A DNA stretch of 64,000 nt from an uncultured Duncaniella sp. (GTDB lineage Bacteria; Bacteroidota; Bacteroidia; Bacteroidales; Muribaculaceae). The translations under genes were made by a program, and so were the position numbers. The stretch lies in assembly GCA_910577335.1 (NCBI GenBank), contig CAJTMJ010000016.1, positions 15,842 through 79,841 of the forward strand, given 5' to 3'. Every line of letters starts with the position of its first letter. Position 1 is the first letter of the stretch. This document shows positions 1 to 38,026 of the stretch, piece after piece. Below the pieces are notes generated by a model. The model saw nothing but the letters and a program-made list of their open reading frames with translations, ran no database searches and was not told where the DNA came from.

Positions 1-168
1 CGTACACTCCGCAAGGGTGAAGAGATCAGTTACTTCCAGTTTGGCGGTTCAGATATCGTGATGGTCTTCCAGGAAAAGAGCAACATTACATTTACAGCTC
101 AGCCGGGTGTTCACTATAAAGTCGGTACACAGCTCGCGGTAGCTCACCCGGTGATAAAACTGAAATAA
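1..168 (+). CDS. 3' fragment (last 55 codons) of a phosphatidylserine-decarboxylase-family (pyruvoyl-type) protein, truncated by the window edge. It is a paralog of the next gene.
   Basis: Frame 1 is open from the window edge to TAA at 166-168. It translates to RTLRKGEEISYFQFGGSDIVMVFQEKSNITFTAQPGVHYKVGTQLAVAHPVIKLK. By hand alignment this matches 42 of 52 residues at the C-terminus of the 218-1420 product, including the FQFGGS motif. Confidence 0.7.
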   Translation, partial: RTLRKGEEISYFQFGGSDIVMVFQEKSNITFTAQPGVHYKVGTQLAVAHPVIKLK

Positions 169-217
169 ATCTTACACATAGACAATAATAATCCTAACAA
201 CAAATAACACGTTAATT

Positions 218-1420
218 ATGGATACAACGAAATTACAGCCTATCATGCAGAAATTCGTCGAGCTTATCAACGCCGACGGTGGTAAAATGCGTACTGCACT
301 TGAAAAGGCACTTGAGATAGTTCACCAGAAAAATGTTGTGGAGTACATGAACATCCGCACACTTGACGACTATATCGAATGGAACGATAAAAACCTTACA
401 ACCCCTTGGCTTGAAAACCGTTACGGTACAGCAACACTTGAGAAGTTCAAGACAATGTACTATCTTCTCGATGTAGCTCCTGTGGGTCAGTATCAGAATC
501 CTGAGGTACCTCGTCCAACCGACCCCGCCCTTACTCCGCTGTCAGAATGGATGCGTGAGTATCAGATAGCTCTTGGTCAGTGGATGGACAACCCTGCTCA
601 GCTCACACCTGAGGTTGAGAAGTCGTTCATGGAAGCTGCTACTTACAACATGGATGAATATGTACGTCCGCGTGGCGGTTGGAAGACTGTCAACCAGCTC
701 TTCGCCCGTCGTACAAAACCGGGTTACCGTCCTATCGCCGCTATTGACGACTCGCGTGTCATAGTATCTCCGGCTGAAAGCACATTTGCAGGTCAGTGGG
801 AAGTAAACTCCAACACAGCCGTTAATATCAAGGGTCTTTACTGGCAGATTCAGGAATTGCTTGAAGGCAGCCAGTACAAGGATTGCTTCAAGGGTGGTCA
901 GTGGACTCACTCATTCCTTAACACTTACGACTATCACCGTCAGCACGCTCCTGTGGCAGGTACTGTGGTAGAATCAAGAGTTATTCAGGGTGCCGTATAC
1001 GTACAGATGGTGCTTAAACCTGTAGAGGGTCAGAAAGATCTTCAGACAATCGTAGGCAACACTGTGGCTGTTAATCCTGACACCGCCAACAAGGACTTCA
1101 AGATCGATGCTCCTGACTCGGCAGGTTATGAATTTATGCAGACCCGTGGTGTGATCATCATTGATAGCCCGATCGGTCTTGTGGCTGTTTGTCCTATCGG
1201 TATGGGACAGGTTTCTTCTGTAATTCCTACCGCTGAGGTTGGTAGAACACTTTACAAGGGTGAGGAAATCAGCTACTTCCAGTTTGGCGGTTCTGACTGC
1301 TGTATGGCATTCCAGGAAAAGAGCAATGTAAGCTTCACTGCTCAGCCCGGCGTACACTACAAGGTCGGCACTCGTATCGCTCAGGCGTTTCCTGTGATTG
1401 ACCCATATAAGAAATTCTAA
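218..1420 (+). CDS. Long-form phosphatidylserine decarboxylase family protein (putative pyruvoyl-dependent decarboxylase, substrate unknown)
   Basis: 400-aa ORF. It contains the PSD-family DYHRxHxPxxG motif (LNTYDYHRQHAPVAGTV) and a C-terminal FQFGGSD motif equivalent to the G-S self-cleavage/pyruvoyl site. I see no obvious TM segment. There is a roughly 150-aa N-terminal extension that short bacterial Psd proteins lack. Confidence 0.8.
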   Translation: MDTTKLQPIMQKFVELINADGGKMRTALEKALEIVHQKNVVEYMNIRTLDDYIEWNDKNLTTPWLENRYGTATLEKFKTMYYLLDVAPVGQYQNPEVPRPTDPALTPLSEWMREYQIALGQWMDNPAQLTPEVEKSFMEAATYNMDEYVRPRGGWKTVNQLFARRTKPGYRPIAAIDDSRVIVSPAESTFAGQWEVNSNTAVNIKGLYWQIQELLEGSQYKDCFKGGQWTHSFLNTYDYHRQHAPVAGTVVESRVIQGAVYVQMVLKPVEGQKDLQTIVGNTVAVNPDTANKDFKIDAPDSAGYEFMQTRGVIIIDSPIGLVAVCPIGMGQVSSVIPTAEVGRTLYKGEEISYFQFGGSDCCMAFQEKSNVSFTAQPGVHYKVGTRIAQAFPVIDPYKKF

Positions 1421-1509
1421 CAGATCTCCGTCAAGTATCGCCGTTTGTGCGGCGAATGGAATGAACTCTCATCAGGTATTATGACAGGTTCATTATGACG
1501 ACGAATTAT

Positions 1510-1558
1510 GATGCTGCAAAGATGGGTCATAGTCCCCGTCCTTGCGGCATCTTTTTAT
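1510..1558 (+). terminator. Intrinsic-terminator-like hairpin (possible attenuator) between the decarboxylase and the antiporter
   Basis: gatgctgcaaag (1510-1521) pairs with ccttgcggcatc (1540-1551): 12 positions with one G-U and one mismatch. A TTTTTATT tract follows. I see no TAnnTTTG box between it and the 1590 start. Confidence 0.45.
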
Positions 1559-1589
1559 TAATCGTATCCTATAAAAAACTATTTAATAT

Positions 1590-3200
1590 ATGGCAACATC
1601 TGATAAACCGGCTACGCCTTCTGTAACGTCTACGGGCAAAGTGCCGTCGGCAGGCGGCAAATCGGGGGGTGCGAAGAAGGCTACAGTCACGATGATTGGT
1701 ATGGCAATCATGATTGTCACCACCATTCTGAGTCTTCGAGGGCTTTCATCACAAGCCGAATACGGCTACACATCCATATTCTGGTATGTCCTTTCAGCAA
1801 TATTGTTCCTAATCCCGTTTTCGCTTGTCTGTGCCGAGCTTGCGTCTACCTACACTAAGAGCGGAGGTCTGTTCCGCTGGGTGTCTGAGGCGTTCGGAGC
1901 ACGTTGGGGATGGGCTGCAATGTATCTTGAATGGATGACAGTGGTGATCTGGTTCCCGTCAGTATTGATGTTCGGAGCCGTGTCACTCGCATACGTTTTC
2001 TGGCCCGAGACCTTTGACACACATCTTGCGTCAAACACAATCTACACTTTGATAATAGTTCTCGCTGTATATTGGCTCAGCACATTCAACTGTTTCCGTG
2101 GTATGCGAAACGCCAATAAACTTTCAACCCTCGGCGGTCTGTTCGGTACCATTATCCCGGGTGCTATTCTTATCATTCTTGGTATAGTCTATATTTGTAC
2201 AGGTGGTGAGAATTTCATACCTACCGACCGTTCATTCTGGCCCGACTTCACAAAATACAGCACAATAGTGCTTGCCGCCTCTATCTTCCTGTTCTACGGA
2301 GGTATGGAGATGCAGGCAGTGCATGTGAACTCTATGCAGAACCCGCAGCGTGATTTCCCGCGTGCCGCATTGGTGGCTGTGGTGATTATTCTTGCAGTGT
2401 TTATCCTCGGTACTCTTGCCATCGGGTTTGTGATGCCTGAGAAGGAGATCAATCTTCTCCAAAGCTTGCTCGTGGCTTACAATAGCCTTTGGGCACATCT
2501 CGGATGTCCTTGGCTCGGTAATGTTCTCGCTCTGTTTGTGACCTTCGGTGTCATCGGTCAGGTGAGTGTGATTATAGCAGGTCCTTCCACAGGTATTCTT
2601 GCCGTTGGTAAAGCCGGTTATCTGCCGCATTCACTTCAGAAAGTAAATAAGAATGGTGTTCAGACCAATATTCTTTGGGTACAGGGTTTGATCGTGACTA
2701 TCCTTGCACTTGTCCTCATTGTGCTCCCTTCTGTTCAGAGTGCCTATCAGGTGATGAGTCAGATGGCGACTGTGACCTATCTTGTGCTTGTGATCATGAT
2801 TTACTGCGCTTTCTTCCGCTTGCGTCACACTGAGAGTAAAGTGAGAAGAGGTTACAGAGTGCCCGGCGGTAATTTTGGCAAATGGCTTGTGACACTTGTG
2901 GGTGTCGGTGGCGCAGTTGCCGCACTTGTTTTAAGCTTCCTTCCCCCGGGTCAGATCAACACCGGTAGCCCTGTGGTATATATCGCCATATTGCTTATAG
3001 GCTCCATCATTATCGTGGCTATTCCGTTTATCATCTACGCTAAACGTAAACCGTCATGGCATGATGCCAATTCCGACTTCTATCCCTTCAATTGGATGAT
3101 AGAAGGTCGTAAGCCTGACGAAGTTTCAAAGTGGCCCGAAAATTATGTGCCTACTCAGGATGAAATTGAAAAAGCATTCAAGGAAGAGGATCAAAGTTAA
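1590..3200 (+). CDS. APC-superfamily amino acid permease, glutamate:GABA antiporter (GadC)-like
   Basis: 536-aa ORF with about 12 hydrophobic segments. The N-terminal region (IFWYVLSAILFLIPFSLVCAELAS...GGLFRWVSEAFG) is typical of the GadC/amino-acid-polyamine-organocation family. A C-terminal cytoplasmic tail resembles the GadC plug. Confidence 0.85.
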   Translation: MATSDKPATPSVTSTGKVPSAGGKSGGAKKATVTMIGMAIMIVTTILSLRGLSSQAEYGYTSIFWYVLSAILFLIPFSLVCAELASTYTKSGGLFRWVSEAFGARWGWAAMYLEWMTVVIWFPSVLMFGAVSLAYVFWPETFDTHLASNTIYTLIIVLAVYWLSTFNCFRGMRNANKLSTLGGLFGTIIPGAILIILGIVYICTGGENFIPTDRSFWPDFTKYSTIVLAASIFLFYGGMEMQAVHVNSMQNPQRDFPRAALVAVVIILAVFILGTLAIGFVMPEKEINLLQSLLVAYNSLWAHLGCPWLGNVLALFVTFGVIGQVSVIIAGPSTGILAVGKAGYLPHSLQKVNKNGVQTNILWVQGLIVTILALVLIVLPSVQSAYQVMSQMATVTYLVLVIMIYCAFFRLRHTESKVRRGYRVPGGNFGKWLVTLVGVGGAVAALVLSFLPPGQINTGSPVVYIAILLIGSIIIVAIPFIIYAKRKPSWHDANSDFYPFNWMIEGRKPDEVSKWPENYVPTQDEIEKAFKEEDQS

Positions 3201-3219
3201 AATTTAATCAAAACGGAAT

Positions 3220-4548
3220 ATGAAAATTAATACCGGAAAAGGGCAAATCTCCCTTATGACTTTGATCGCTATATGGTCAATTTCTCTGACTGTCAATCTC
3301 CCGGGACTCGCTATAACGCCGATGCTCGGAAACCTTGACAAAATATTCCCTCATACGTCAGAACTTGAGATACAGCTTCTCACGGTATTGCCTAACCTTT
3401 TCATTATTCCATTCGTACTCCTTTCCGGCAAACTTTCATTGTCGAAAAGTAAAATCAGCATTGTAGTGGTTGCCCTCGCCATTTATTTGGCGGGGGGAAT
3501 CCTCTATCTTTTTGCCGATAGTATGGTACAGCTGATAATCATAAGTTGTATCCTCGGAATGGGATGTGGATTGCTGATACCGCTCGCCGCCGGATTGCTT
3601 GCCGACACGTTTGTGGGGAAGTATCGTATGCGTCAGCTTGGTATCAAGTCGGGCATATCGAATATTGCATTGGTGGTCGCCACATTTATTGTTGGTTGGC
3701 TTAACCGTGGCAATTGGCATCTGCCGTTTCTCGTCTATCTTATCCCGGCGATTCCACTCGTTCTGTCGGTATTCTTAAGGGGTATCCCTAAGGCTGACCT
3801 GAATCCGCCTGTAGTCACTCCGACACCTCGCGTGAAGGCTTCGGTAAATGTAGCTGCAATGGCTACAGTTGCAGGCACTCCCGCTCAGGCGATACATGCA
3901 GCACCGCCGGTTGCCGGTTCGGATAATTATGGCAAGATAGGGAAAGTTAAAGACGATTTTATTATCTCAAGACTATGGTCCCTGATAGCTGTCTATTTTT
4001 TTGTGTGCTACGCCACAGTGATAGTAAGTTATTACTCTCCGTTCCTGATGCAGAGTGAAGGGATGAGTGATTCCGAAGTGGGTACAATAACAGCTATTTT
4101 CTTCCTTGCTGTCTTCCTTCCGGGATTTATCCTCCCGTTTATCGTAAAGCTCTTTAAGCAAGGCACATTGATAGTATCCTCCTTGGTAATGAGCGTGGGT
4201 ATTATTCTGATGGTTCTTGGGAAACATTTCGGCATAATGTGCGTGGCATCTGTACTGGTAGGTTTCGGATATGGCGTGTTCCAGCCCCTTATCTATGATA
4301 AGGCGACTCAGATAGTGACCGTCCCGGCTAAAGCCACACTGGCTCTTGCATTTGTCCTTGCGGCAAATTACATCTCCATAAGTGCCACCCCTTTCATAGT
4401 CGATTTCTTCAGGTCGATATTTGACCCTCACCATCTTGTCAATAGTTTCCCATTCATACTCAACTCGATCCTGCTTGTCATTTTCACTGTTGTAGTATTG
4501 ATATTTCGTAAATCATTTGTGTTCCGTATAGACACATCATATTACTAA
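3220..4548 (+). CDS. MFS-type transporter
   Basis: 442-aa polytopic ORF with a 6+6 hydrophobic-segment layout. A Pro/Ala/Val-rich central loop separates the halves. It starts 20 nt after the antiporter stop. Confidence 0.7.
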   Translation: MKINTGKGQISLMTLIAIWSISLTVNLPGLAITPMLGNLDKIFPHTSELEIQLLTVLPNLFIIPFVLLSGKLSLSKSKISIVVVALAIYLAGGILYLFADSMVQLIIISCILGMGCGLLIPLAAGLLADTFVGKYRMRQLGIKSGISNIALVVATFIVGWLNRGNWHLPFLVYLIPAIPLVLSVFLRGIPKADLNPPVVTPTPRVKASVNVAAMATVAGTPAQAIHAAPPVAGSDNYGKIGKVKDDFIISRLWSLIAVYFFVCYATVIVSYYSPFLMQSEGMSDSEVGTITAIFFLAVFLPGFILPFIVKLFKQGTLIVSSLVMSVGIILMVLGKHFGIMCVASVLVGFGYGVFQPLIYDKATQIVTVPAKATLALAFVLAANYISISATPFIVDFFRSIFDPHHLVNSFPFILNSILLVIFTVVVLIFRKSFVFRIDTSYY

Positions 4549-4567
4549 TCGCATAAAAAATCCATAT

Positions 4568-5872
4568 ATGATTTCGTTTTTACGTGTAGGTGCGCTTGTC
4601 CTGACATTGTGCGCATCTCAGATCATAATGGCTCAGGGACATCCTGCCCGAAAGGATAATACCGGCGTGACAGTGTTGAATCACATTGCGGGAGAAAACC
4701 CCGACACAGCCGAGATCCATAAAAAGTTTGTGGAGAATGCCCCTGCTGTCTATAATATACCCGGCGCTCCGAGGTTTGCCATTATCGGTAAGGAGCGTAA
4801 GTTTTATCTTGGTATAGGCGGGACGCTTAAAGCAACAGTGTCGTATGATTGGGGCGACCCTATTGATAATGCTTTTGACTTTACAACTTCTGCCATCCCT
4901 ATGAATCCCCGCAAGGGCGATGACGGGCTTGTGCAGTTTAGCGCTGCAACCAGCGGTATGTTTATCAACTTTGTGGCATTGCCCGGAAATGAAAATCAGG
5001 TCGGGGCATATATTAATTTCAACCTCACCGGTGGAAACGATTATGGCTTTGACTTGCAGTATGCCTACTTGAAGTACAGAGGTATCACAGCCGGTTATAA
5101 TTATAGTCTGTTCTCTGATATGGCGGCTGCCCCTCCAAGCATCGATAACGAAGGTCCGTGTGGTTTCACAGCCATACCCAATGGTGTGCTGGATTACACT
5201 TTGGATATAAATTCTCATTGGAAAGTGGCTGCCGGACTCGAATTGCCTATGGTTTCGGCTACTACAAGCGATAAGAATTATATCGTTAACCAACGTGTCC
5301 CTGATATCCCTGCATACGTTCAGTATTCATGGGGTGGAGGTAGCAGCTGGTTGAGATTCTCGGCTATACTCCGTAACATGCTTTATAGAGATGTCCCGGC
5401 TGACCGTAACAGAGATATGATAGGGTGGGGTATTAAAATGAGCGGAAGCGCTACATTATGCCCTGTGGTCACTACCTACTGGCAAGCAGCCTACGGCAAA
5501 GGTATCACAAGCTATTTCCAAGACCTGTACGAAGGCGGACTTGACATGGTTCCTGATGCAGAGGATAATGGTAAATTGACAACGGTCAAGGCTTGGGGCG
5601 GATATGCAGGTATCCAATACAATATTTCACCGACCGTTTTTATCACTACCACCTATAGCCATTTGCGTAACTATGCTCCGAATTACACCCAAGGCACCAC
5701 ACCATGGGGTGAGCAATACAAATATGCGCAATATGCGCTTGCCAATGTGATGTGGACTATCAAGCCCGGCATACAGTGCGGTCTTGAATACATATATGGC
5801 AGGAGAGTGGATATGTCAGGTGTATCTCACCACGACAATCGTCTGCAGACCATGCTTTGTTTAAGCTTCTAA
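4568..5872 (+). CDS. Putative outer-membrane beta-barrel porin
   Basis: 434-aa ORF with an N-terminal signal peptide (LVLTLCASQIIMAQG). It has many alternating aromatic/Gly-rich strands and a C-terminal ...LCLSF ending in Phe, typical of OMP barrels. It starts 20 nt after the MFS gene. Confidence 0.55.
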   Translation: MISFLRVGALVLTLCASQIIMAQGHPARKDNTGVTVLNHIAGENPDTAEIHKKFVENAPAVYNIPGAPRFAIIGKERKFYLGIGGTLKATVSYDWGDPIDNAFDFTTSAIPMNPRKGDDGLVQFSAATSGMFINFVALPGNENQVGAYINFNLTGGNDYGFDLQYAYLKYRGITAGYNYSLFSDMAAAPPSIDNEGPCGFTAIPNGVLDYTLDINSHWKVAAGLELPMVSATTSDKNYIVNQRVPDIPAYVQYSWGGGSSWLRFSAILRNMLYRDVPADRNRDMIGWGIKMSGSATLCPVVTTYWQAAYGKGITSYFQDLYEGGLDMVPDAEDNGKLTTVKAWGGYAGIQYNISPTVFITTTYSHLRNYAPNYTQGTTPWGEQYKYAQYALANVMWTIKPGIQCGLEYIYGRRVDMSGVSHHDNRLQTMLCLSF

Positions 5873-5887
5873 AGATTTTAGTATAAG

Positions 5888-5929
5888 AAAGGTCGGGAGT
5901 GCAAATTTTGCGCCCCAGACCTTTTTATT
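5888..5929. terminator. Imperfect hairpin between convergent genes (porin + / adh -)
   Basis: aaaggtcgggagtgc ... gcgccccagaccttt followed by TTTTATTT. The stem contains 2 mismatches and 1 wobble. Confidence 0.4.
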
Positions 5930-5969
5930 TAACTGACTTGACTTCTTATAAGAAGTTCATACGTATTTC

Positions 5970-7148
5970 TTACAGAGCAAGACGATAGATTTCAGCTGTC
6001 TCCGCTGATGTTAGCGGATAGTAACCTCCTATGCGTGCGCCTTTGTTCTCATGCAGTTTTGCCACGAGTAAGTCTATGTCCGGATCAGGCACACCCAACT
6101 GCTCAAATGTCACAGGCAGACCTATGGAGCTGAAGAAATTCCGTAAGCGACCTATTCCTTGGAGTGCGGCTTCCCGGTCGTTGACCGTATCGATACCGAA
6201 TACACGTCTGCCGAACTGAGCTATCTTTGCCGGGCAATGTTCTGCCATATAAGTCATCCATGCCGGTGTGATTACGGCAAGTCCTGCGCCATGGGTTACA
6301 CCGTAGACTGCGCTCACTTCATGCTCCATGAAGTGCGATACCCAATCCTCTGCACGTCCGGTGCCACAAAGCCCGTTGTGGGCAAGTGTTCCGCTCCAGA
6401 GTATGTTGGCTCTCGCATCGTAATCGGTAGGATTGGCAATCACCTTGGGCGCTTCCTCAATAATAGCTTTCAGAAGACCTTCGGCAAGGCGGTCGGTGAC
6501 TTCGACATTTTCTGTCTGAGAGAAATAACGCTCAAAAATGTGCGCCATCATATCTGCTATACCGCTGGCTGTCTGATAGGGTGGGAGGGTGAAAGTAATC
6601 TCGGGATTCAAACAAGCGAATTTCGGGCGCAGTGCTGATTCGGTGCGTAGCGACAGTTTGTGCAACCCTTCCACTTTGGTGATCACAGAGTTTCCACTCC
6701 CTTCGCTTCCAGCCGCAGGAATGGTGAGGACAACACCTAAAGGCAATGCCTCCTTCACAGTCTTTTTACCGCAGTAAAAATCCCAAAAATCACCATTATA
6801 AGGCACTCCACACGCTATAGCCTTGGCAGTGTCAATAGCCGAACCGCCGCCCACAGCTACCAATCCGTCAATTTTCTCTGCCCGTGCCATTCCGATACCC
6901 TCATAAACCTTTGTGTCTATAGGGTTAGGCTGCACTCCACCGAATTCAACTGTCTTTATGCCGGCTGATTTCAGAGAATCTTTCACACGTTCTATGAGTC
7001 CGCTTCTCACTGCTGACCCCATGCCGTAGACTATCATGACCCGATGTGCGCCCATTGCTTTGGTGAGTTCACCCACCTGCTCTTCGGCACCTCGTCCGAA
7101 TACATAGTGTGTCGGACTGTAAAAACTGAAATTATTCATAAATCGCAT
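5970..7148 (-). CDS. Iron-containing (group III) alcohol dehydrogenase, butanol dehydrogenase/YqhD-like
   Basis: 392-aa ORF with GGGSxxD (VAVGGGSAIDTAKAI) and His-rich metal-site motifs typical of Fe-ADH. An alternative ATG lies at 7139. Confidence 0.9.
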   Translation of the reverse strand: MRFMNNFSFYSPTHYVFGRGAEEQVGELTKAMGAHRVMIVYGMGSAVRSGLIERVKDSLKSAGIKTVEFGGVQPNPIDTKVYEGIGMARAEKIDGLVAVGGGSAIDTAKAIACGVPYNGDFWDFYCGKKTVKEALPLGVVLTIPAAGSEGSGNSVITKVEGLHKLSLRTESALRPKFACLNPEITFTLPPYQTASGIADMMAHIFERYFSQTENVEVTDRLAEGLLKAIIEEAPKVIANPTDYDARANILWSGTLAHNGLCGTGRAEDWVSHFMEHEVSAVYGVTHGAGLAVITPAWMTYMAEHCPAKIAQFGRRVFGIDTVNDREAALQGIGRLRNFFSSIGLPVTFEQLGVPDPDIDLLVAKLHENKGARIGGYYPLTSAETAEIYRLAL

Positions 7149-7245: not shown

Positions 7246-9381
7246 TTATTCCTCTCCGTTAAGAAGTTCGAGCATCTTGATAGCTGATACAGGGATGCGT
7301 GTGCCGGGACCGAAGATAGCGGCAACGCCAGCCTTGTAAAGGAAGTCATAGTCCTGAGCGGGGATCACACCGCCGGCTGTAACCATGATGTCATCTCTGC
7401 CGAGTTTCTTAAGTTCCTCGATAACCTGAGGTATGAGGGTCTTGTGACCGGCAGCGAGTGAAGATACACCGAGGATATGAACGTCGTTTTCAACTGCCTG
7501 ACGGGCTGCTTCAGCCGGAGTCTGGAAGAGCGGACCCATATCCACGTCAAAACCGCAGTCGGCATAACCGGTAGCAACCACTTTGGCACCACGGTCGTGA
7601 CCGTCCTGTCCCATCTTGGCAATCATGATACGGGGTTGACGACCTTCGCGTTTAGCGAATTCTTCACACATCTGCTGAGCCTTTACAAAGTCAGGATCTT
7701 GCTTGGTTTCTGATGAGTACACGCCTGAAATAGTTCTGATTACTGCTTTATATCTGCCAACGACTTCTTCGCAGGCATCTGAAATTTCACCGAGTGTCGC
7801 ACGGAGACCTGCAGCCTTGACAGCGAGGTCGAGAAGATTGCCCTTCTTGGTGCGTACACATTCGGTAATGTCGGCAAGTGCTTTCTTGACTGCTTCCTCG
7901 TCACGATGAGCCTTCAGGTCAACAAGACGGGCTACTTGGTCCTTACGTACCTCGGTGTTGTCGATTTCGAGGATGTCGATAGGATCTTCGTGGTCAAGAC
8001 GATACTTGTTGATACCTACGATAGTCTGACGGCCTGAGTCGATACGAGCCTGAGTACGTGCTGAAGCCTCTTCGATACGCATCTTCGGAAGACCTGATTC
8101 GATAGCCTTAGCCATACCGCCGAGTTTCTCGATTTCCTGAATGTGTTCCCATGCGCGGTGTGCTATCTCGTTGGTGAGAGCTTCCACGTAGTAAGAACCG
8201 CCCCACGGGTCAACCTGCTTGGTGACCATGGTTTCTTCCTGAATGTATATCTGAGTGTTACGTGCGATACGTGCTGAGAAGTCGGTCGGAAGTGCGATAG
8301 CCTCGTCGAGTGCGTTGGTGTGGAGCGACTGAGTGTGACCCAATGCTGCACCCATAGCCTCGATACAAGTACGTCCTACGTTGTTGAACGGATCCTGCTC
8401 GGTAAGTGACCATCCTGAGGTCTGTGAGTGTGTACGGAGCGCAAGTGATTTCGGGTTCTTCGGGTTGAACTGTTTTACAATCTTCGCCCAAAGCAGACGA
8501 GCCGCACGCATCTTGGCTACTTCCATGAAGTAGTTCATACCGATAGCCCAGAAGAATGAGAGACGGGGTGCGAATGCGTCAATGTCGATACCTGCGTTGA
8601 TACCTGCGCGGAGATATTCAAGACCGTCGGCAAGAGTGTATGCAAGTTCTATATCACAGGTTGCACCTGCTTCCTGCATGTGGTAACCTGAGATTGATAT
8701 AGAGTTGAACTTAGGCATGTTCTGCGAAGTGTACTCGAAGATATCAGCGATGATTCGCATAGAGAATTCCGGCGGGTAAATGTATGTGTTACGCACCATG
8801 AATTCCTTGAGGATGTCGTTCTGGATAGTACCAGCCATCTCTTCAAGCTTGGCGCCCTGTTCAAGACCTGCATTGATGTAGAATGCGAGTACCGGAAGAA
8901 CGGCACCGTTCATAGTCATTGACACAGACATCTTGTTTAAAGGTATACCTTCGAAAAGCACCTTCATGTCTTCAAGCGAGCAGATAGATACACCAGCCTT
9001 ACCTACGTCACCAACCACACGTTCATGGTCAGCGTCATATCCACGGTGTGTGGCAAGGTCAAATGCTACTGAAAGACCTTTCTGACCTGAAGCAAGATTA
9101 CGGCGATAGAAAGCGTTTGATTCAGCTGCCGTAGAGAAACCTGCGTACTGGCGGATGGTCCAAGGACGCAAAGGATACATGGCGCTGTACGGACCGCGGA
9201 GGAATGGGGGAATACCTGAAACATAGTTCAAGTGTTCAAGTCCTTCAAGGTCCTGCTTTGTATAAATGGGCTTGACAGGGATAAGTTCAGGGGTAAGCCA
9301 TTCTTCCCCTGTGGTTTCGGGGACATGGAGGTCACCGAATGCGTCTTTTACAATGTCAATATCTTTGAAATTGGGTTTCAT
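7246..9381 (-). CDS. mutB: Methylmalonyl-CoA mutase large (catalytic, B12-binding) subunit
   Basis: 711-aa ORF. The C-terminal cobalamin-binding DxHxxG motif is present ([12 protein letters not shown]). The N-terminal TIM-barrel sequence is typical of MCM alpha. Confidence 0.95.
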
Positions 9382-9405: not shown

Positions 9406-11268
9406 TTATTTTTTGAGAAGCTTGTCATTGAACGCACGGAGTGTGTCGAGCACGTTGCAGCGTACATGTACGAAATCATTTATGCCGATAGCCTTGAGGT
9501 CATCCATGCAAGCGGGAGCACCTGCAACGACAAATTCAGCACGTCCGTTGAGATATTTGAATGCTGCGGGAGCAAGTTCTGCGTATTCATCATCGCTTGA
9601 GCAGAGAACCACGATATCAGCACCCTTTTCAAGAGCTGCGTCAACGCCTTCCTCAACTGTGTTGAAACCGAGGTTGTCGATGATTTCATAACCTGCACAT
9701 CCGAAGAAGTTGGATGAGAACTGAGCGCGGGCAAGACGCATGGCAAGATTACCGATAGTGAGCATGAACACTTTCGGACGGTTGGAAGCTGCCTCGGTAG
9801 CAAGACGGAGGGCTTCGAAGTCGCTTGCGGCACGTTTGGTGGGAAGACCTGCAGTCTCACAAGCTTCATCATGATGACCACATCCGCAAGAGAGTGAACC
9901 GTTAAGGTTTACGATCTTGTCAGCTGCCATCTCATTGATGTTGGGGTACTGGTTGGTTCCGAGAAGGATTTCCTTACGACGGGCAACGTCAGTGTGGCGC
10001 TTTTCAGAGCTTTCACGTATTGCTTTCTGAACTTCGTCATCGTTGCAGCAAGCGAGGAATCCACCCTTGTCTTCAACTTCAAGGAAAAGTTTCCAAGCTT
10101 CCTTGGCTATGGCAACAGTAAGTGTCTCCACGTAGTAGCTACCACCAGCGGGGTCGATAACCTTGTCAAGGTGGCTTTCCTCTTTAAGAAGGAATTGCTG
10201 GTTGCGGGCGATACGTTCAGAGAATTCATCCGGACGTTTGTAAGGCATGTCAAACGGAGTGACAGTGATAGAGTCAACACCTGCAAGAGCGGCTGACATA
10301 GCCTCAGTCTGGCTACGAAGCAAGTTTACATGTGCATCGTAGAGTGTCTGGTTGTAGCGTGAAGTAACGGCATGAGCCATCATCTTACATGCGTTCTCAT
10401 CAGCGGGTTTGTATTGAGCCACGATTTGTGCCCAAAGCATACGTGCCGAACGGAATTTGGCAAGCTCCATGAAGAAGTTTGACGAAACACCCATGTTGAA
10501 TTTTATGCGGCTCGCTACCTCGTCGGCGCTGCGGCCTGCATCGGTAAGAAGTGTCATCCACTGTGAACCCCATGCGAGAGCATAGCCGAGTTCTTGGAAG
10601 ATGTATGCTCCGGCATTGCTGAGCATGTCACTGTCTACTGAAAGTACACGAAGCGCAGGAACATCCTTAACGGCATCAAGGATTTCGCAAGCCATGGCTG
10701 TTAGAGTGGCTGCGTCAAATGCCACACCTTTGCGAAGCGGTTTGCGGAAGGGGTTGAAGTCGATTGAGCCTTTGAATGTTTCAACACAGTCATGCTCCTT
10801 TACATATTCCACGAGAGCCTTGGCAAGCGGAAGCGCTTTTTTAACGCAGCAAGTGAAATTGACCTCCACAGCGGGTAGGTGGATATCTTTGAGAAGAGTT
10901 TCAAGAGTTTCCTTGGTGGGTTCTTCCACATGGAAACCGAGCGAAGTCACACCCTTGTTGAGCACATCGAGAGCCTTCTTGTTGGCTTCTTCGGGAGTGT
11001 CTGCAAGGATTTCTTGACGGGTGAGCCAGTCATTGTCGGTACGTGTACCGCGTACGTATGGGAATTCGCCTGGAAGTGAATTGGTGGTCTTGAAGTCCTC
11101 GATATCTTCCAGTCTGTACATAGGCTGGAGATTGAATCCTTCATTGGTGCGCCATACAAGTTTTTTATCAAACGGGGCACCCTTCAAGTCAGCTTCCACT
11201 TTGGCTTTCCACTCTGCAGTGGAAACCGGGGGAAACTGTTCAAACAATTTTTCTTTCTTTTCTGCCAT
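9406..11268 (-). CDS. mutA: Methylmalonyl-CoA mutase small subunit
   Basis: 620-aa ORF homologous to MCM but without the DxHxxG His. It ends 24 nt upstream of mutB on the same strand. Confidence 0.9.
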   Translation of the reverse strand: MAEKKEKLFEQFPPVSTAEWKAKVEADLKGAPFDKKLVWRTNEGFNLQPMYRLEDIEDFKTTNSLPGEFPYVRGTRTDNDWLTRQEILADTPEEANKKALDVLNKGVTSLGFHVEEPTKETLETLLKDIHLPAVEVNFTCCVKKALPLAKALVEYVKEHDCVETFKGSIDFNPFRKPLRKGVAFDAATLTAMACEILDAVKDVPALRVLSVDSDMLSNAGAYIFQELGYALAWGSQWMTLLTDAGRSADEVASRIKFNMGVSSNFFMELAKFRSARMLWAQIVAQYKPADENACKMMAHAVTSRYNQTLYDAHVNLLRSQTEAMSAALAGVDSITVTPFDMPYKRPDEFSERIARNQQFLLKEESHLDKVIDPAGGSYYVETLTVAIAKEAWKLFLEVEDKGGFLACCNDDEVQKAIRESSEKRHTDVARRKEILLGTNQYPNINEMAADKIVNLNGSLSCGCGHHDEACETAGLPTKRAASDFEALRLATEAASNRPKVFMLTIGNLAMRLARAQFSSNFFGCAGYEIIDNLGFNTVEEGVDAALEKGADIVVLCSSDDEYAELAPAAFKYLNGRAEFVVAGAPACMDDLKAIGINDFVHVRCNVLDTLRAFNDKLLKK

Positions 11269-12774: not shown

Positions 12775-15700
12775 TTAAATAGATTCATTGTATTTTTTCC
12801 CATACTTTGCCTGATATTCCGACGGGAGAATTCCGAATTCGTTTTTGAAATACTTACGGAAAAGATTCAAGTTGTTGAAGCCTGTCTGATACGTGATTTC
12901 AGCTATGCTGAGCTGACTCTCAGTGATGAGTTGTGCGGCACGTTTCAATCGGATTATACGTATGAATTCTATAGGTGTCTTTCCGGTAATTGATACCATT
13001 TTCTTATAGAGATGCACACGGCTCATGCCAAGCTCACTGCTAAGTTCTTCAACCGATAGCTCGCTGCTGCTTAGGTTTTCCTCCACATAGCGGATGGCTT
13101 TTTGCATCAGTTTTTGGTCAAGAGGTGTGATATTGATCTTGCTTGGAGATATTTCCATCGGCTCTTTGTGGGAATCACGGCGGTGCTGGAGAAGATTTTT
13201 GATTCTCCGGGTGAAAATGTCGAGATTGAACGGTTTGGTGATATAGTCATCCGCTCCGCTTTCAAGACCTTTCAATTCATGTTCTTTTGCAGCTCTTGCA
13301 GTGAGAAGTATTACTAGTATATGTGATGTGCGGATATCATTCTTCACCAGACTGCACAGTTCGTTACCGTCCATCTCCGGCATCATAACGTCTGATACTA
13401 TTATGTCCGGCTGAAGTTCCGGTATGATATCCCATGCTTTTTTACCGTTGTCGGCTTCATGAACCACATAGTCATTTTTGAGACAATCTCTCATGAATTT
13501 TCGGAAATCGTCATTGTCGTCCACAATCAACACTACGGGACGCTTGTTGTCCTCAGCCACTTCCGTTGTCAGGACTGTTTTGTCATCGGATATTTCCACA
13601 TTCGGTTCCTCTCGTGGAATATCTTTCTTTTCAACTTCCGCAGCATCATCCACCTTTTTAATAGGTATGTTGATGATGAACACGGCACCCTTGCCGATAT
13701 TGTCACACACATAGATGGTGCCTTCGTGCAGGGTCACAAACTCTTTTACAAGATTTAATCCCACACCGCTTCCCGATGACTGGCGGCCACCCTTTTGCGG
13801 CACTTGGTAGAAACGGTCGAATATCAGCTTTTTATGTTCGTCACTGATGCCGCAGCCATTGTCTGCAACCTTGAGTTCAAGCATCTCAGGCTGTTTGTCC
13901 GTGGCGGGAATGACATCGATCGACACATCCACACGTCCACCGTCTGGGGTGAATTTAAATGCGTTCGAGAGCAAGTTCATCACTATCTTGTTGAGCTTGT
14001 CCTCGTCAAACATCATATACAGGCTCTTGACCGAAGAATAGAATGTAAGATTTATGTTGCGATGTTCGGAATATTCAACAAAGTTGTTGCATATAGTGCG
14101 CACGGTATCCACAATATCACCCTTGGTGGAATTAAGGCGGTGTCCTGCCATGTCGCTTTTGCGGAAATCAAGGAGTTGGTTGACCATCCCGAGAAGACGC
14201 ACGGCATTGTTGCGTGCCATTTCCAATTTCTCTTTCAGGTCTTTATTGTCGATGTTGTTTATCACATATTCAATCGGTGTGAGAATAAGTGTGAGCGGAG
14301 TGCGCAAGTCATGGCTTATATTGGTGAAAAAGCGCATTTTCATATCGTCAATCTCATGTTTCTGACGCGCTTCCTGCTGTATTCGGAGCAATTCATATTT
14401 CTGCTTCTCATTATGGCGCAGATATGCCCTCAGAAGCAGAATCACACATATAAATAGAATAAAATATATGATATATGCCACCCACGAACGGTAAAATGGG
14501 GGTGCTATTATTATTTTCAACTCTGCGGCTTCGTCGCTTGCGTATCCGTCATTGTTCACAGCTTTTACTTTCAGAATGTATTCTCCCGGAGCAAGGTTGG
14601 TATATGTGAGTTTGTTGGAGTTTGACACTGACCAGTCGGTGTCAAAACCTTCGAGCATATACATATAGGTGGTCTTTTCAGGCAATACATAGTTCATCGC
14701 TGAAAATGTCACGGAGAACACATTTTGGTCATGGTTCAGGTGTATCGCCTCGGTGAAATCGGGTGCCATATCCAATATGCGCTGACCGTCATATATGCTG
14801 TCAATCTTGACATCCCGGTTAAAGAGCTGCATGGAAGTGAAATGTACCTGCGGTGTCGAGGTGTCGTATTTCAGATTTGAAGGGTCTATCAGGCTTATGC
14901 CATTCACTCCGCCGGTCACTATTGTGCCAGATGAGTGGCGTAATATGGCCCTCGGATTGAAATCAAAATCATCAAGAATACTAAAGTCGTTATATTTTCT
15001 GTGTGAAAATGTATATTCCTGTGTGGTGGGATCGCTGTTGACAACTATGTGGTAAAGACCTTGCGAAGAGGTGACCCACATATTTTTGTCATTGTCTTCG
15101 GTGATGCCGTGTATTATCGACTGGTTCAACTGGCTTACAGGCGATATTATCATATCGTTCCTCCTGTCATATATGTTGATACCCTCGCGTGTGGAAACCC
15201 ATAGAAGCCCTCGGCTGTCCTCATATACCTGCACTAACGATGAATTGTTGAAAAAGCTCTCACCCTTGCGGTCGCCAAGTGTTTTTTCAAATTTTCTGGC
15301 AATAGGGTCATATATGAGGAGTCCGTAGGTTGTGCCCATGTATATGTTATTATCCATTGATATGCAGATTGATGCAATCTGCTCGCCGGCGTAATTTTCA
15401 TGGCATTGTGTGATGCGACCTGTTTTTGTGTCCATTCCGTACAGACCGTCGCCCCATGTGCCAATCCACAGGTATCCCGATTTGTCACATGCAAGTGACC
15501 AAATAGTAGTGTTGGCTGCAGAGCTGGGGTTGTTGCTGTCTAAAGTATGGTGTTGGAATGTTTTGCCGTCATACGACATCAGCCCGTGTTTATAAGTGCC
15601 TATCCATATTTTCCCATTATTGTCGGCTGTCATGCTTACTATAACGTCATACACTTTTGACGACGGATTTGTGCCGGGTAAATTGACTAATTCCCTTTGT

Positions 15701-16863
15701 TTTGTCTCTCGGGTTACCTTGATGATTCCGTTAGGCACACCTAAATACAGGTTCCCTTTCGGGTCTTCTGTGATGGAGGATACGTCGGGAACGAAATTAT
15801 AGTTGTTTCTGAATCCCTGAAAATAATCTGTGCGGAATCTGAACAGGCTCTTGTTGAAATATGAGATGCCACGTTTGAATGTACCTACCCATACGCCACC
15901 GTCAGTGTCGGCATAAAGGCATGTAACTCCGTTTTGACTTAGACTTCTTTCGTCAGACAGATCATTCTGGATATGTTCCACACTCATGTCTGACTTATCG
16001 ATTATATTGATACCTCCATTGTCAATCGTCATCCAAATACGTCCGTTGCGGTCAGTCACGATATTGCGTACACATTTCCCTGTCAGTTTGTTGGAACTTT
16101 CGGAGGTCAGATGAGTCCATTTCCCGTTGCTCGTGTTGTAGAGCCATGTAGATTGGTCGTTGTATATCCAATAATCGCCGTCATGGTCACAATGTATTTT
16201 ATAATTGTCACCTGTGTAGACCGGCAGATTTACTATATAATCGTTTTGTTGATCTATTTTATTTGAGCTGCGGTTTATATGGTCAAAATATCCGTTTGAA
16301 AACACCCTTACTATGCCGTTTGGTGTTTCGTACATACATTTAAGTGTGATGCCGGTATGGTTATTTTGTGGTATGAGTGTAATTGTTTTGTCATTTGCGC
16401 TATAATGAAGCATTTCCCTTTTGGATGTCTCCATCCAGAGATCCTTATTGGAATCGATATATACAAGGGTCGGAGCTTCGTTTATGCCATATTTTTCTGA
16501 AAGTATTTTTTCAGCATCAATAAACACCTCCTTTTTCGGGTCATAACATGAGTATTTTGCCGAACTGAAATATACCCATAGATAGCCGTTACAGTCTTCC
16601 TGAACATTGAGAGCGGTAACGAAAGGGAGCGAGTATGGATCATTGCTGTCTCTAAAAAAATTCTTGAAAGAATATCCGTCATATCGTGAAAGCCCATGCC
16701 CGGTGGAAACCCAAATGAATCCACGGGAGTCACGAGTTATGTGATTGATTTCATTATCGCTCAATCCGTCCTTTATGGAGAGGTGCATGAACCGTATGTC
16801 ATCGGTTGCTGTGGCACCTAATGATATTAGAAGTAAAAGGGTTGAAATTATAAGCTTCATCAT
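12775..16863 (-). CDS. Hybrid two-component system regulator (periplasmic beta-propeller/Y_Y_Y sensor, HisKA/HATPase, receiver, AraC-type HTH)
   Basis: 1362-aa ORF with a signal peptide and repeated propeller-like motifs. The H-box is FFTNISHDLRTPL. There is an ATPase domain, a receiver (VLIVDDN...DVMMPEMDG) and a C-terminal AraC HTH. Confidence 0.95.
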   Translation of the reverse strand: MMKLIISTLLLLISLGATATDDIRFMHLSIKDGLSDNEINHITRDSRGFIWVSTGHGLSRYDGYSFKNFFRDSNDPYSLPFVTALNVQEDCNGYLWVYFSSAKYSCYDPKKEVFIDAEKILSEKYGINEAPTLVYIDSNKDLWMETSKREMLHYSANDKTITLIPQNNHTGITLKCMYETPNGIVRVFSNGYFDHINRSSNKIDQQNDYIVNLPVYTGDNYKIHCDHDGDYWIYNDQSTWLYNTSNGKWTHLTSESSNKLTGKCVRNIVTDRNGRIWMTIDNGGINIIDKSDMSVEHIQNDLSDERSLSQNGVTCLYADTDGGVWVGTFKRGISYFNKSLFRFRTDYFQGFRNNYNFVPDVSSITEDPKGNLYLGVPNGIIKVTRETKQRELVNLPGTNPSSKVYDVIVSMTADNNGKIWIGTYKHGLMSYDGKTFQHHTLDSNNPSSAANTTIWSLACDKSGYLWIGTWGDGLYGMDTKTGRITQCHENYAGEQIASICISMDNNIYMGTTYGLLIYDPIARKFEKTLGDRKGESFFNNSSLVQVYEDSRGLLWVSTREGINIYDRRNDMIISPVSQLNQSIIHGITEDNDKNMWVTSSQGLYHIVVNSDPTTQEYTFSHRKYNDFSILDDFDFNPRAILRHSSGTIVTGGVNGISLIDPSNLKYDTSTPQVHFTSMQLFNRDVKIDSIYDGQRILDMAPDFTEAIHLNHDQNVFSVTFSAMNYVLPEKTTYMYMLEGFDTDWSVSNSNKLTYTNLAPGEYILKVKAVNNDGYASDEAAELKIIIAPPFYRSWVAYIIYFILFICVILLLRAYLRHNEKQKYELLRIQQEARQKHEIDDMKMRFFTNISHDLRTPLTLILTPIEYVINNIDNKDLKEKLEMARNNAVRLLGMVNQLLDFRKSDMAGHRLNSTKGDIVDTVRTICNNFVEYSEHRNINLTFYSSVKSLYMMFDEDKLNKIVMNLLSNAFKFTPDGGRVDVSIDVIPATDKQPEMLELKVADNGCGISDEHKKLIFDRFYQVPQKGGRQSSGSGVGLNLVKEFVTLHEGTIYVCDNIGKGAVFIINIPIKKVDDAAEVEKKDIPREEPNVEISDDKTVLTTEVAEDNKRPVVLIVDDNDDFRKFMRDCLKNDYVVHEADNGKKAWDIIPELQPDIIVSDVMMPEMDGNELCSLVKNDIRTSHILVILLTARAAKEHELKGLESGADDYITKPFNLDIFTRRIKNLLQHRRDSHKEPMEISPSKINITPLDQKLMQKAIRYVEENLSSSELSVEELSSELGMSRVHLYKKMVSITGKTPIEFIRIIRLKRAAQLITESQLSIAEITYQTGFNNLNLFRKYFKNEFGILPSEYQAKYGKKYNESI

Positions 16864-35413: not shown

Positions 35414-36718
35414 TCATCTGGTCATAAGAAACGATTTGAAGTCGGCAAATTCCGTCGTCATGGGCACTGACTGCTTTTCACCTTTCATAAATGCCGCAAG
35501 ACGGTCAGGAATAGTGACCTCGGCACCAATTATCGGCTCCACAGTATCTTTGAATTTGGCAGGATGTGCCGTTTCAAGGAACACTCCGGTTTCGCCGGGC
35601 CGTAGCCCCTCTTTTAATGCCCTGTAGCCGCAAGCCCCGTGCGGGTCAAGTGTGTAGCCTGTGGTGTCATGACATTCTTTCATTGTCTCGGCAATCTGTT
35701 CGTCGGTGTATGTGGCTCCGCTGATAAGTGAAGTGATGCGACCGTGATCACAGCCATAAAGGTCAAGGATACGTGCGAAGTTGCTCGGGTCGCCGACATC
35801 CATCGCATTGGCTATAGTCTGACGGCTTGGTTTGGGAGAGTATACACCGGTCATCAGGTAATTATAGAATATATCGTTAGCATTGTTGGCTGCAATGAAT
35901 CGTTTTATAGGCAGTCCCATGCGGTGAGCGAAAAGTCCGGCTGTGATGTTTCCGAAATTTCCACTTGGAACGCTGATTACGAGCTGGTCGGCAAGCCCTT
36001 TTTCCTTCATGCGGGCGTAAGCGTTGAAATAATAGAATGCCTGAGGGAGGAAGCGAGCCACATTTATGGAATTGGCTGAGGTAAGCTTTATATGGTCGCA
36101 AAGCTCTGCATCCATGAAGGCTGATTTTACAAGGCTTTGGCAATCATCGAACACGCCGTCAACCTCAATGGCTGTTATATTCTTGCCAAGTGTGGTGAAC
36201 TGACATTCCTGAATCGGGCTGACTTTCCCTTTTGGGTAGAGCACATATACATGAATCCCTTCCACGCCAAGAAAACCGTTGGCGACAGCAGAGCCGGTGT
36301 CACCGCTTGTGGCAACAAGCACATTGACCTCTTTGCCGTCATTTTGACGCTTGATGAAATATTGTAGCAGACGTGCCATAAAGCGTGCGCCTACATCTTT
36401 GAACGCAAGCGTGGGACCATGGAAAAGTTCGAGGGAATAAATCGACGGTTCAACCTCCACTACCGGGCAGTCAAATGCCAGTGTGTCACATACGATACGG
36501 TCAATATCCTCTTTGGGTATATCCTCGCCGAAGAAAGCTTCCGCAACACGGCAAGCTATCTCTTGGAAGGTGAATTTATCAATGTTTTCAAAAAATTCAT
36601 CAGGCAGACGGTCGATATGCTCAGGCATGAAAAGTCCCCTGTCTGAGGCAAGTCCTTTCACTACGGCTTCTTCAAGCGAAGCGGCGGGAGCGTGATGATT
36701 TGTGCTGTAATATTTCAT
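35414..36718 (-). CDS. thrC: Threonine synthase
   Basis: 434-aa ORF with a PLP-lysine region (HGPTLAFKDVGARF) and the long ThrC architecture. It is the last gene of the thrA-apgM-thrC cluster. Confidence 0.95.
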   Translation of the reverse strand: MKYYSTNHHAPAASLEEAVVKGLASDRGLFMPEHIDRLPDEFFENIDKFTFQEIACRVAEAFFGEDIPKEDIDRIVCDTLAFDCPVVEVEPSIYSLELFHGPTLAFKDVGARFMARLLQYFIKRQNDGKEVNVLVATSGDTGSAVANGFLGVEGIHVYVLYPKGKVSPIQECQFTTLGKNITAIEVDGVFDDCQSLVKSAFMDAELCDHIKLTSANSINVARFLPQAFYYFNAYARMKEKGLADQLVISVPSGNFGNITAGLFAHRMGLPIKRFIAANNANDIFYNYLMTGVYSPKPSRQTIANAMDVGDPSNFARILDLYGCDHGRITSLISGATYTDEQIAETMKECHDTTGYTLDPHGACGYRALKEGLRPGETGVFLETAHPAKFKDTVEPIIGAEVTIPDRLAAFMKGEKQSVPMTTEFADFKSFLMTR

Positions 36719-36776
36719 TGTGAGAAAATTTCTTACGATATGGGAGAAAAATGTGAGATGATTATAGATATATGGA

Positions 36777-38012: not shown

Positions 38013-38026
38013 AAACTCACCCTGCG

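Follow-up and report, generated by a model that had tools for sequence, protein, structure and literature searches.

Gene content of the cassette

The stretch of DNA analysed here, referred to as the window, comprises 64,000 nucleotides (nt) from an uncultured Duncaniella sp. (assembly GCA_910577335.1, contig CAJTMJ010000016.1, positions 15,842 to 79,841 of the forward strand). It begins with a cassette of five genes on the forward strand, two tandem genes of the phosphatidylserine decarboxylase (PSD) family followed by three transporter genes, which we propose to be a module for the decarboxylation and exchange of an amino acid. An initial annotation, prepared from the sequence alone, had suggested a gut Bacteroidales organism as the source, and the family is Muribaculaceae.

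The first gene, encoding PSD-family paralog A, is represented in the window by its 3′ end (positions 1-168; 55 codons and the stop; PF02666, E 8e-9), which contains the motif FQFGGSD and ends in ...KGEEISYFQFGGSDIVMVFQ...VIKLK. It is followed by the gene for paralog B (218-1420), a PSD-like decarboxylase of 400 amino acids (aa; PF02666, E 6e-42) that is predicted to be a soluble pyruvoyl proenzyme. The three transporter genes encode a putative GadC-like antiporter of the APC family (1590-3200; 536 aa), an MFS_1 transporter (3220-4548; 442 aa) and a Porin_2 or DcaP-like outer-membrane β-barrel (4568-5872; 434 aa) with a signal-like N-terminus and a C-terminal phenylalanine. Pfam assignments to AA_permease_2, MFS_1 and Porin_2 bear out the earlier description of these proteins as an APC/GadC-like permease, an MFS transporter and a signal-peptide barrel ending in Phe. 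The gaps between the five genes measure 49, 169, 19 and 19 nt in gene order; the last three values had been reported before, and on re-measurement they were the same, as were the five reading frames and their coordinates.

The complete sequence of paralog A (384 aa) was taken from a metagenome contig (L001), on which paralog B, the three transporters and a neighbouring alcohol dehydrogenase are 100% identical to the window copies. The two paralogs had been described as about 80% identical, which holds for the C-terminal 52 residues visible for both (42/52, 80.8%) but not for the whole proteins, which share 59%. A tblastn search of the 64-kb window for a further psd recovered paralogs A and B only.

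Catalytic motifs and predicted fold of the decarboxylase-like proteins

Paralog B carries both PSD-family signatures named in the initial annotation, DYHRxHxP (DYHRQHAP, aa 238-245) and FQFGGS (aa 354-359). The catalytic histidine motif DYHRQH (aa 238-243; codons at 929-946, forward strand) aligns with DYHRVH of the Escherichia coli PSD and with AYHRWH of PsiD, the L-tryptophan decarboxylase of Psilocybe. The motif FQFGGSD (aa 354-360; codons at 1277-1297, forward strand) spans the predicted self-cleavage site between Gly358 and Ser359, and cleavage at this position would give a 358-aa β chain and a 42-residue α chain, with Ser359 predicted to become the pyruvoyl group. A PF02666 search and alignment to PsiD and Psd identified the domain and placed the Asp/Glu-His-Ser triad and the Gly-Ser site in register: D/E187, H240, H243 and G358-S359 correspond to the triad of the E. 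coli PSD, whose counterparts we take to be numbered D90/H144/H147/S254, and to G402-S403 of PsiD. These residues are invariant or nearly so among 102 aligned family members, and FQFGGSD is invariant in 102/102 Muribaculaceae sequences. In PsiD, the cleavage site G402-S403 lies within GGSS (PMC11929908).

The proteins nevertheless do not resemble canonical lipid decarboxylases closely. Paralog B scored 20-89 bits against six NCBIfam Psd/Asd equivalog models with cut-offs of 112-371 bits, falling far below all of them, and its best score was 88.6 bits against a cut-off of 371. A profile built from 61 homologs gave E-values of 4e-22 for PsiD, 6e-20 for Ao-ADC1, the arginine decarboxylase of Aspergillus oryzae, and 3e-16 for the E. 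coli PSD, which ranked behind both. An AlphaFold2 model of paralog B (pLDDT 82, pTM 0.81) comprises a helical N-terminus followed by a β-rich catalytic domain, corresponding to an N-terminal region at aa ~1-150 (model helices at aa 8-138) and a PSD domain at aa 158-388. Foldseek aligned this model over ~400 columns with PsiD (E 4e-13) and Ao-ADC1 (E 2e-10, TM 0.55; entries 8x4q, 8zia and 9jer), at ~17-18% identity in the structural alignments, whereas the match to the E. coli PSD (E 6e-8) covered 274 columns and the catalytic domain only. The Pfam PSDC domain (PF12588) was not matched in paralog B even at E <= 10, and one distant relative gave 0.16. No transmembrane-like segment or signal peptide was found in the 400 residues of paralog B, and its sole hydrophobic stretch (aa 311-337) forms a core β-strand pair in the model.

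Two earlier suggestions, that the proteins have a long N-terminal extension and no transmembrane segment and that they are unlikely to be the housekeeping lipid Psd, are therefore supported, and the helical N-terminus matches PsiD and Ao-ADC1 as well. The accompanying statement that the PSD fold has been recruited for a free amino acid at least once is correct as to the occurrence and is raised to at least twice, by PsiD for tryptophan and Ao-ADC1 for arginine (PMC11929908, PMC12904898). Since profile, predicted fold and the Gly-Ser site preceded by a second glycine all agree, the architecture and cleavage motif of paralog B are like those of PsiD and Ao-ADC1, and no other PSD-fold enzymes are known to use free amino acids as substrates.

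PsiD (8x4q, 8zia) is the best match by both Foldseek and profile and shares with paralog B the PSD fold, the N-terminal helices, the GGS site and the motif YHRxH; it self-cleaves between the second glycine and the first serine of GGSS and forms a pyruvoyl-tryptophan Schiff base (PMC11929908). It differs in being a fungal enzyme of a secondary-metabolite cluster with no antiporter, in having a PSDC domain that is undetected in the window protein, in its ~17-18% identity and in the hydrophobic V292 of the indole pocket, which is not kept in the window family. Ao-ADC1 (9jer, 9jf5) also combines an N-terminal helix region with a PSD domain, is cleaved between glycine and serine in GGST, has a pH 4 optimum, is soluble and has no PSD activity (PMC12904898). 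Unlike paralog B, it has YHCWN in place of YHRQH, is fungal with no linked transporter and uses arginine, and the two proteins share ~18% identity. The E. coli Psd (7cnw, 6l06) shares PF02666, the Asp-His-Ser triad, DYHRxH and serinolysis to a pyruvoyl group, the last being predicted for the window protein, but it has LGST where the window protein has FGGSD, it acts at the membrane on a lipid substrate, and its gene is not linked to that of any amino-acid carrier.

The linked transporters

The permease scored 612 bits on TIGR03813, the model for the glutamine/GABA (γ-aminobutyric acid) antiporter GadC (cut-off 650), and 461 bits on the Glu/GABA model NF053662, compared with 269 for TyrP, 42 for the histidine/histamine model TIGR04298 and 36 for AdiC. 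In the PDB it is best matched by the E. coli GadC (E 9e-66). The TIGR03813 scores of ten further PSD-linked permeases, encoded at other loci, were 570-633 bits, all under 650; on these scores the PSD-linked permeases are consistently a sister group that lies immediately beyond the curated GadC family. The 120 permease homologs among the matches listed are all >=66% identical, with no bridge to the GadC proteins of Bacteroides that are linked to the pyridoxal phosphate (PLP)-dependent GadB. A hydropathy scan of the window permease gave ~12 hydrophobic segments, and its C-terminal ~50 aa, predicted to be a cytoplasmic tail, occupy the position of the pH-gating plug of the E. coli GadC. Members of the GadC family are exchangers.

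The MFS protein has an Ala/Pro-rich central loop and only weak similarity to DHA1/NorA-type proteins; DHA1 carriers include amine and polyamine exporters. The barrel protein has one N-terminal hydrophobic segment (MISFLRVGALVLTLCASQIIMAQG) and the C-terminus ...LCLSF. It scored 42 bits on Porin_2 (cut-off 22), and its only PDB sequence match was the DcaP-like 6eus of Acinetobacter baumannii (E 7e-7), likewise an outer-membrane β-barrel. DcaP is a porin with a preference for anions or dicarboxylates. The window porin, encoded in a Bacteroidota host, differs from it in falling under the Pfam DcaP cut-off (18 vs 27 bits).

Conservation of the cassette in Muribaculaceae

Scanning one genome per species yielded 254 stretches that encode relatives, of which the best 80 (51-95% identity) were analysed. 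Almost all of these loci are from Muribaculaceae metagenome-assembled genomes of mouse, human, chicken, rabbit and other guts, together with the isolate Lepagella muris NM04_E33 (L082). The relatives include MGBC123065 (L008), at 95% identity. Where enough downstream sequence was available (75 loci), a GadC-like permease gene lies directly 3′ of the last decarboxylase gene on the same strand in 67 loci, and in two more it is divergent. This adjacency, spanning 51-95% identity and varied flanks, answers the question raised in the initial annotation of whether the neighbourhood is conserved. An MFS gene is present in 43/80 loci and a porin gene in 33/80, the number of tandem decarboxylase genes per locus ranges from one to three, and several genomes have two loci. 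The five-gene arrangement is not due to chance, as dozens of related genomes show this order of genes.

Clustering all open reading frames of the 80 loci returned no gene family beyond the four of the cassette that is common to more than seven loci, and neither a regulator, a glutaminase or an aminotransferase nor pssA or any other lipid gene appeared among the conserved neighbours. A relative with 87% identity has the same five-gene cassette with entirely different flanking genes, so the Fe-alcohol dehydrogenase and methylmalonyl-CoA mutase genes that flank the cassette in the window lie outside it.

A PLP-dependent group II decarboxylase of divergent sequence (~583 aa; PF00282, 78 bits) is encoded immediately beside the PSD-like gene at seven loci, which represent three lineages (L083:7122-8870, L047:7213-8964, L032:665-2410, L065:4384-6129 on the reverse strand, and three more loci). 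This protein scores far under every NCBIfam equivalog cut-off and is weakly similar to TyrDC, diaminobutyrate (DABA) decarboxylase and PanP. Its presence is independent support for amino-acid decarboxylation as the theme of the array.

The ketopantoate hydroxymethyltransferase gene panB lies beside the cassette in five related loci (L024:7864-8682, L026:8020-8835, L027:2090-2908 on the reverse strand, L028:6140-6958 and L066:11990-12808 on the reverse strand), which share a wider neighbourhood including a CobW gene and a 172-aa gene. A canonical PanD is encoded in another Muribaculaceae locus (L013:87-407). We considered the panB adjacency as a pointer to β-alanine and gave it little weight, given the single common neighbourhood and the PanD of L013; it probably reflects the inheritance of a common gene order and not function.

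Hairpins flanking the transporter genes

The gap between paralog B and the permease gene (1421-1589) contains a terminator-like hairpin on the forward strand (1510-1551) followed by a U-run (1552-1560). Folding of 140 nt of this gap gave -51.3 kcal/mol (z = -4.9), and a comparable hairpin with a T-run was found in 54/67 related gaps against 3/67 shuffled controls. This conservation suggests either attenuation that keeps the enzyme above transporter levels or separate transcription units, and the hairpin itself might act in attenuation or, as a 3′ end, stabilise the mRNA. A second hairpin between an A-run and a T-run (5886-5930; -23.3 kcal/mol, z = -5.4) separates the end of the cassette from the convergent alcohol dehydrogenase gene and is likely to be a bidirectional terminator. 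Folding revealed both strong hairpins, neither of which was listed by a consensus terminator scan. No credible riboswitch or known RNA was detected in the gaps by an Rfam gathering-threshold scan of the whole window or by an E-value scan of positions 4600-7700 of L001.

Active-site classes among the paralogs

The 102 PSD-like proteins of the Muribaculaceae loci (L001-L085) split into at least five discrete signature classes, defined by positions 187-193, 230-237, 295-299, 309 and 330 around the predicted active site. Both tandem genes of the window are represented among them, paralog A by class A (D187...N-T-T) and paralog B by class B (E187...N-T-Y). An insertion of 13 residues (aa 282-294 of paralog B) distinguishes class B and falls within the segment aligned with the pocket-forming loop 3 of PsiD. 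Classes track locus architecture, the class with the signature 'DNDQWIQNTTKL' occurring mostly with the PSD-like and APC genes only, and that with 'DFDSWMSGPA' in the PSD-APC-MFS-porin arrangement. Given the class difference and the class B insertion in the loop 3 segment, paralogs A and B probably differ in their pockets and hence in substrate or regulation. An alignment-based mapping of the PsiD pocket (PMC11929908) onto the family found F233, L234, M329 and V332 conserved, with V292 replaced by Thr and T374 by Gly/Ala.

A wider family of FQFGGSD proteins

Searching the N-terminal 150 residues of paralog B against 1.8 billion representative proteins returned only 84 clusters, nearly all of them PF02666 proteins of 340-500 aa that are 33-43% identical to the window protein over their full length. 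The cleavage motif GGSD, usually as FQFGGSD with small changes before GGS, is found in nearly all full-length distant homologs, which are typically ~380 aa long. Fungal homologs occur in Rhizophagus, Pilatotrama, Conoideocrella and Beauveria, at 36-43% identity with the protein of the window, and bacterial homologs, spread over many phyla, were found in Longimicrobium, Sorangium, Methylovulum, Derxia, Andreprevotia, Acidobacteria and Saprospiraceae. Without exception, their database names are 'phosphatidylserine decarboxylase' or 'hypothetical'.

Proposed function and alternative explanations

Based on the gene content, the catalytic motifs, the predicted fold and the conserved linkage, we propose that the cassette is an amino-acid decarboxylation/exchange module, and we put the probability of this reading at roughly 0.65. 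The interpretation given in the initial annotation is supported as far as computation reaches. In this scheme, the two tandem genes would encode cytoplasmic PSD-fold proenzymes that cleave themselves between Gly358 and Ser359, turning Ser359 into a covalently bound pyruvoyl cofactor. The pyruvoyl group would form a Schiff base with the α-amino group of a free amino acid, the α-carboxylate of which would be lost as CO2 with the consumption of one cytoplasmic proton. The GadC-like APC protein would carry the external amino acid in and the internal amine out across the inner membrane, and this exchange could result in net charge movement and alkalinisation, providing acid tolerance and/or proton-motive force. 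The DcaP/Porin_2-like barrel may provide a high-flux path across the outer membrane for the same small solutes, and the MFS protein may serve as an additional carrier in the inner membrane, perhaps exporting the amine as an amine/H+ exporter or offering a second route of uptake. Owing to the hairpin that separates the two sets of genes, the enzymes are probably expressed at much higher levels than the transporters.

This organisation is reminiscent of known decarboxylase/antiporter pairs. As in GadB/GadC, a decarboxylase gene stands beside the gene of a GadC-type APC exchanger; however, GadB is PLP-dependent whereas a pyruvoyl PSD-fold enzyme is predicted here, an MFS protein and a porin are added, and no glutaminase or K+ channel gene is conserved at window-type loci (80 loci). 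HdcA/HdcP pairs a pyruvoyl histidine decarboxylase with a precursor/product antiporter and generates proton-motive force. The window cassette is proposed to follow the same logic of a pyruvoyl decarboxylase with an antiporter, but HdcA is of unrelated fold and depends on the maturase HdcB, and the window permease reaches only 42 bits on TIGR04298. The HdcA/HdcP system is listed for lactic acid bacteria (PMC8465708).

Because the permease is GadC-like and the porin DcaP-like, the substrate is most likely an acidic amino acid. Glutamate, decarboxylated to GABA, is our first candidate, though a tentative one, and aspartate, which would give β-alanine, is a good deal less likely.

Several observations weigh against this proposal or against its acidic substrate. 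The PSD-linked permeases always fall under the GadC cut-off, and the exchanged pair may therefore differ from Glu/Gln:GABA. The closest characterised enzymes use tryptophan (PsiD) and arginine (Ao-ADC1), and the residues that are invariant across the family close to the predicted active site (E195, H231, D300, D360) are for the most part acidic or polar, which on the alignment does not obviously suit an acidic side chain. The hairpin lies between enzyme and transporter genes, which may therefore be separate transcription units. In Derxia, Methylovulum, Sorangium and Andreprevotia (L086-L089), the four non-Muribaculaceae bacteria inspected, whose proteins share 48-52% identity with the sequence that served as reference in the search for them, the homolog is a solitary gene among unrelated neighbours with no transporter nearby, and so the ancestral role need not be antiport-coupled. 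Finally, full-text literature searches returned no published characterisation of any bacterial member, only the fungal work on PsiD and Ao-ADC1, and a metabolite-based literature search returned nothing on Muribaculaceae.

Among the alternatives, the one that survives best keeps the decarboxylase/antiporter mechanism and assigns it an aromatic or basic substrate (tryptophan to tryptamine, arginine to agmatine, or lysine, ornithine or tyrosine), so that a classical biogenic amine or polyamine precursor would be secreted. The substrates of the closest solved structures, the invariant acidic residues D300, D360 and E195 near the predicted active site, the weak similarity of the MFS protein to DHA1 carriers and that of the PLP decarboxylase of seven loci to TyrDC and DABA decarboxylases are all consistent with such a substrate. 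We nonetheless regard it as unlikely, given that the permease is far closer to GadC (612 bits) than to TyrP (269), TIGR04298 (42) or AdiC (36), that identity to PsiD and Ao-ADC1 is only ~17-18%, that the PsiD pocket residues V292 and T374 are Thr and Gly/Ala here, and that the porin resembles a DcaP-like porin.

A biosynthetic rather than bioenergetic role is less probable again. Here the enzyme would make an amine building block, such as β-alanine for pantothenate, ethanolamine or a polyamine precursor, and the APC and MFS proteins would import the precursor, with no product export and no gain in proton-motive force. The wider family, solitary and widespread in free-living bacteria and fungi, does suggest a housekeeping-type reaction, and panB adjoins the cassette in five related loci. 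However, high flux is indicated by the presence of a porin of its own, two carriers and as many as three copies of the enzyme; proteins of the GadC family are exchangers; at least one Muribaculaceae locus (L013) encodes a canonical PanD; and the panB adjacency, stemming from one shared neighbourhood with the CobW and 172-aa genes, is a weak pointer.

That the proteins are lipid decarboxylases acting on phosphatidylserine or another serine-lipid, as in public records, with the transporters as unrelated neighbours, is very improbable: PF02666, the catalytic triad and the name of every named database homolog speak for it, but the scores lie far under all Psd equivalog cut-offs, each locus has one to three copies in tandem and a genome can carry several loci, the antiporter is linked in 67/75 loci, the full-length fold match is to PsiD and Ao-ADC1 and not to PSD, Ao-ADC1 with the same architecture is without PSD activity (PMC12904898), and there is neither a membrane-anchoring segment nor a conserved pssA or lipid gene nearby.

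Other features of the window

Convergent with the cassette is a gene for a YqhD-like Fe-alcohol dehydrogenase (5970-7148, reverse strand) that is absent from the loci of relatives, followed on the same strand by genes for two methylmalonyl-CoA mutase subunits (7246-9381 and 9406-11268). A polysaccharide utilisation locus extends from 12775 to 34745, beginning with a hybrid two-component regulator (12775-16863, reverse strand), and encodes GH43, GH42 and GH2 proteins, a GH29 fucosidase, a SASA esterase, SusC/SusD, a protein with an SGBP-B xyloglucan-binding domain and a GH5 protein with BACON; this content suggests a locus of the xyloglucan type. A threonine operon on the reverse strand (35414-40459) contains genes for aspartokinase/homoserine dehydrogenase (38027-40459) and threonine synthase (35414-36718), and a cofactor-independent phosphoglycerate-mutase-like protein (36777-38012, reverse strand) is encoded at the position expected for a homoserine kinase. 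Some 40 kb away from the cassette, a gene on the reverse strand (45070-46767) encodes a 565-aa transporter of the Asp-Al_Ex (aspartate:alanine exchanger/YidE) family, which contains a TrkA_C domain; this family, too, is associated with exchange driven by decarboxylation.

Implications for possible amine production by Muribaculaceae

The proposed module joins a PSD-fold pyruvoyl amino-acid decarboxylase, of the kind represented by two fungal enzymes, with a precursor/product antiport module as in the systems Gad, Hdc, Tyr and Adi. This combination, present in a family of abundant gut bacteria, has not been described before. Surveys of gut amines target PLP-dependent enzymes and three pyruvoyl families, HdcA, PanD and PdaD, and a 2025 survey of gut amino-acid decarboxylases did not mention PSD-fold enzymes (PMC12484125). 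A broader and more doubtful proposal is that the FQFGGSD proteins are a large unrecognised family of pyruvoyl amino-acid decarboxylases, with at least five active-site classes in Muribaculaceae, each having its own GadC-like exchanger and often an MFS protein, a porin or a PLP decarboxylase. Such a family may represent a high-flux pathway, independent of an external cofactor, to amines that act on the host, GABA or β-alanine for instance, and one that censuses of amine genes have missed entirely.

The prediction is concrete, in that one recombinant protein and a panel of amino acids suffice as a test. If these proteins do act on free amino acids, a whole enzyme family would be mis-annotated as lipid Psd in public databases, and bacteria would join the two fungal cases, PsiD and Ao-ADC1, as sources of PSD-fold amino-acid decarboxylases. 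A dedicated system for amine secretion and acid tolerance, invisible to current pipelines, would then be present in Muribaculaceae, which are a major gut family and poorly characterised. On the broader proposal above, this dominant Bacteroidales family of the mouse gut, and of the human gut, would have a route to amines such as GABA or β-alanine.

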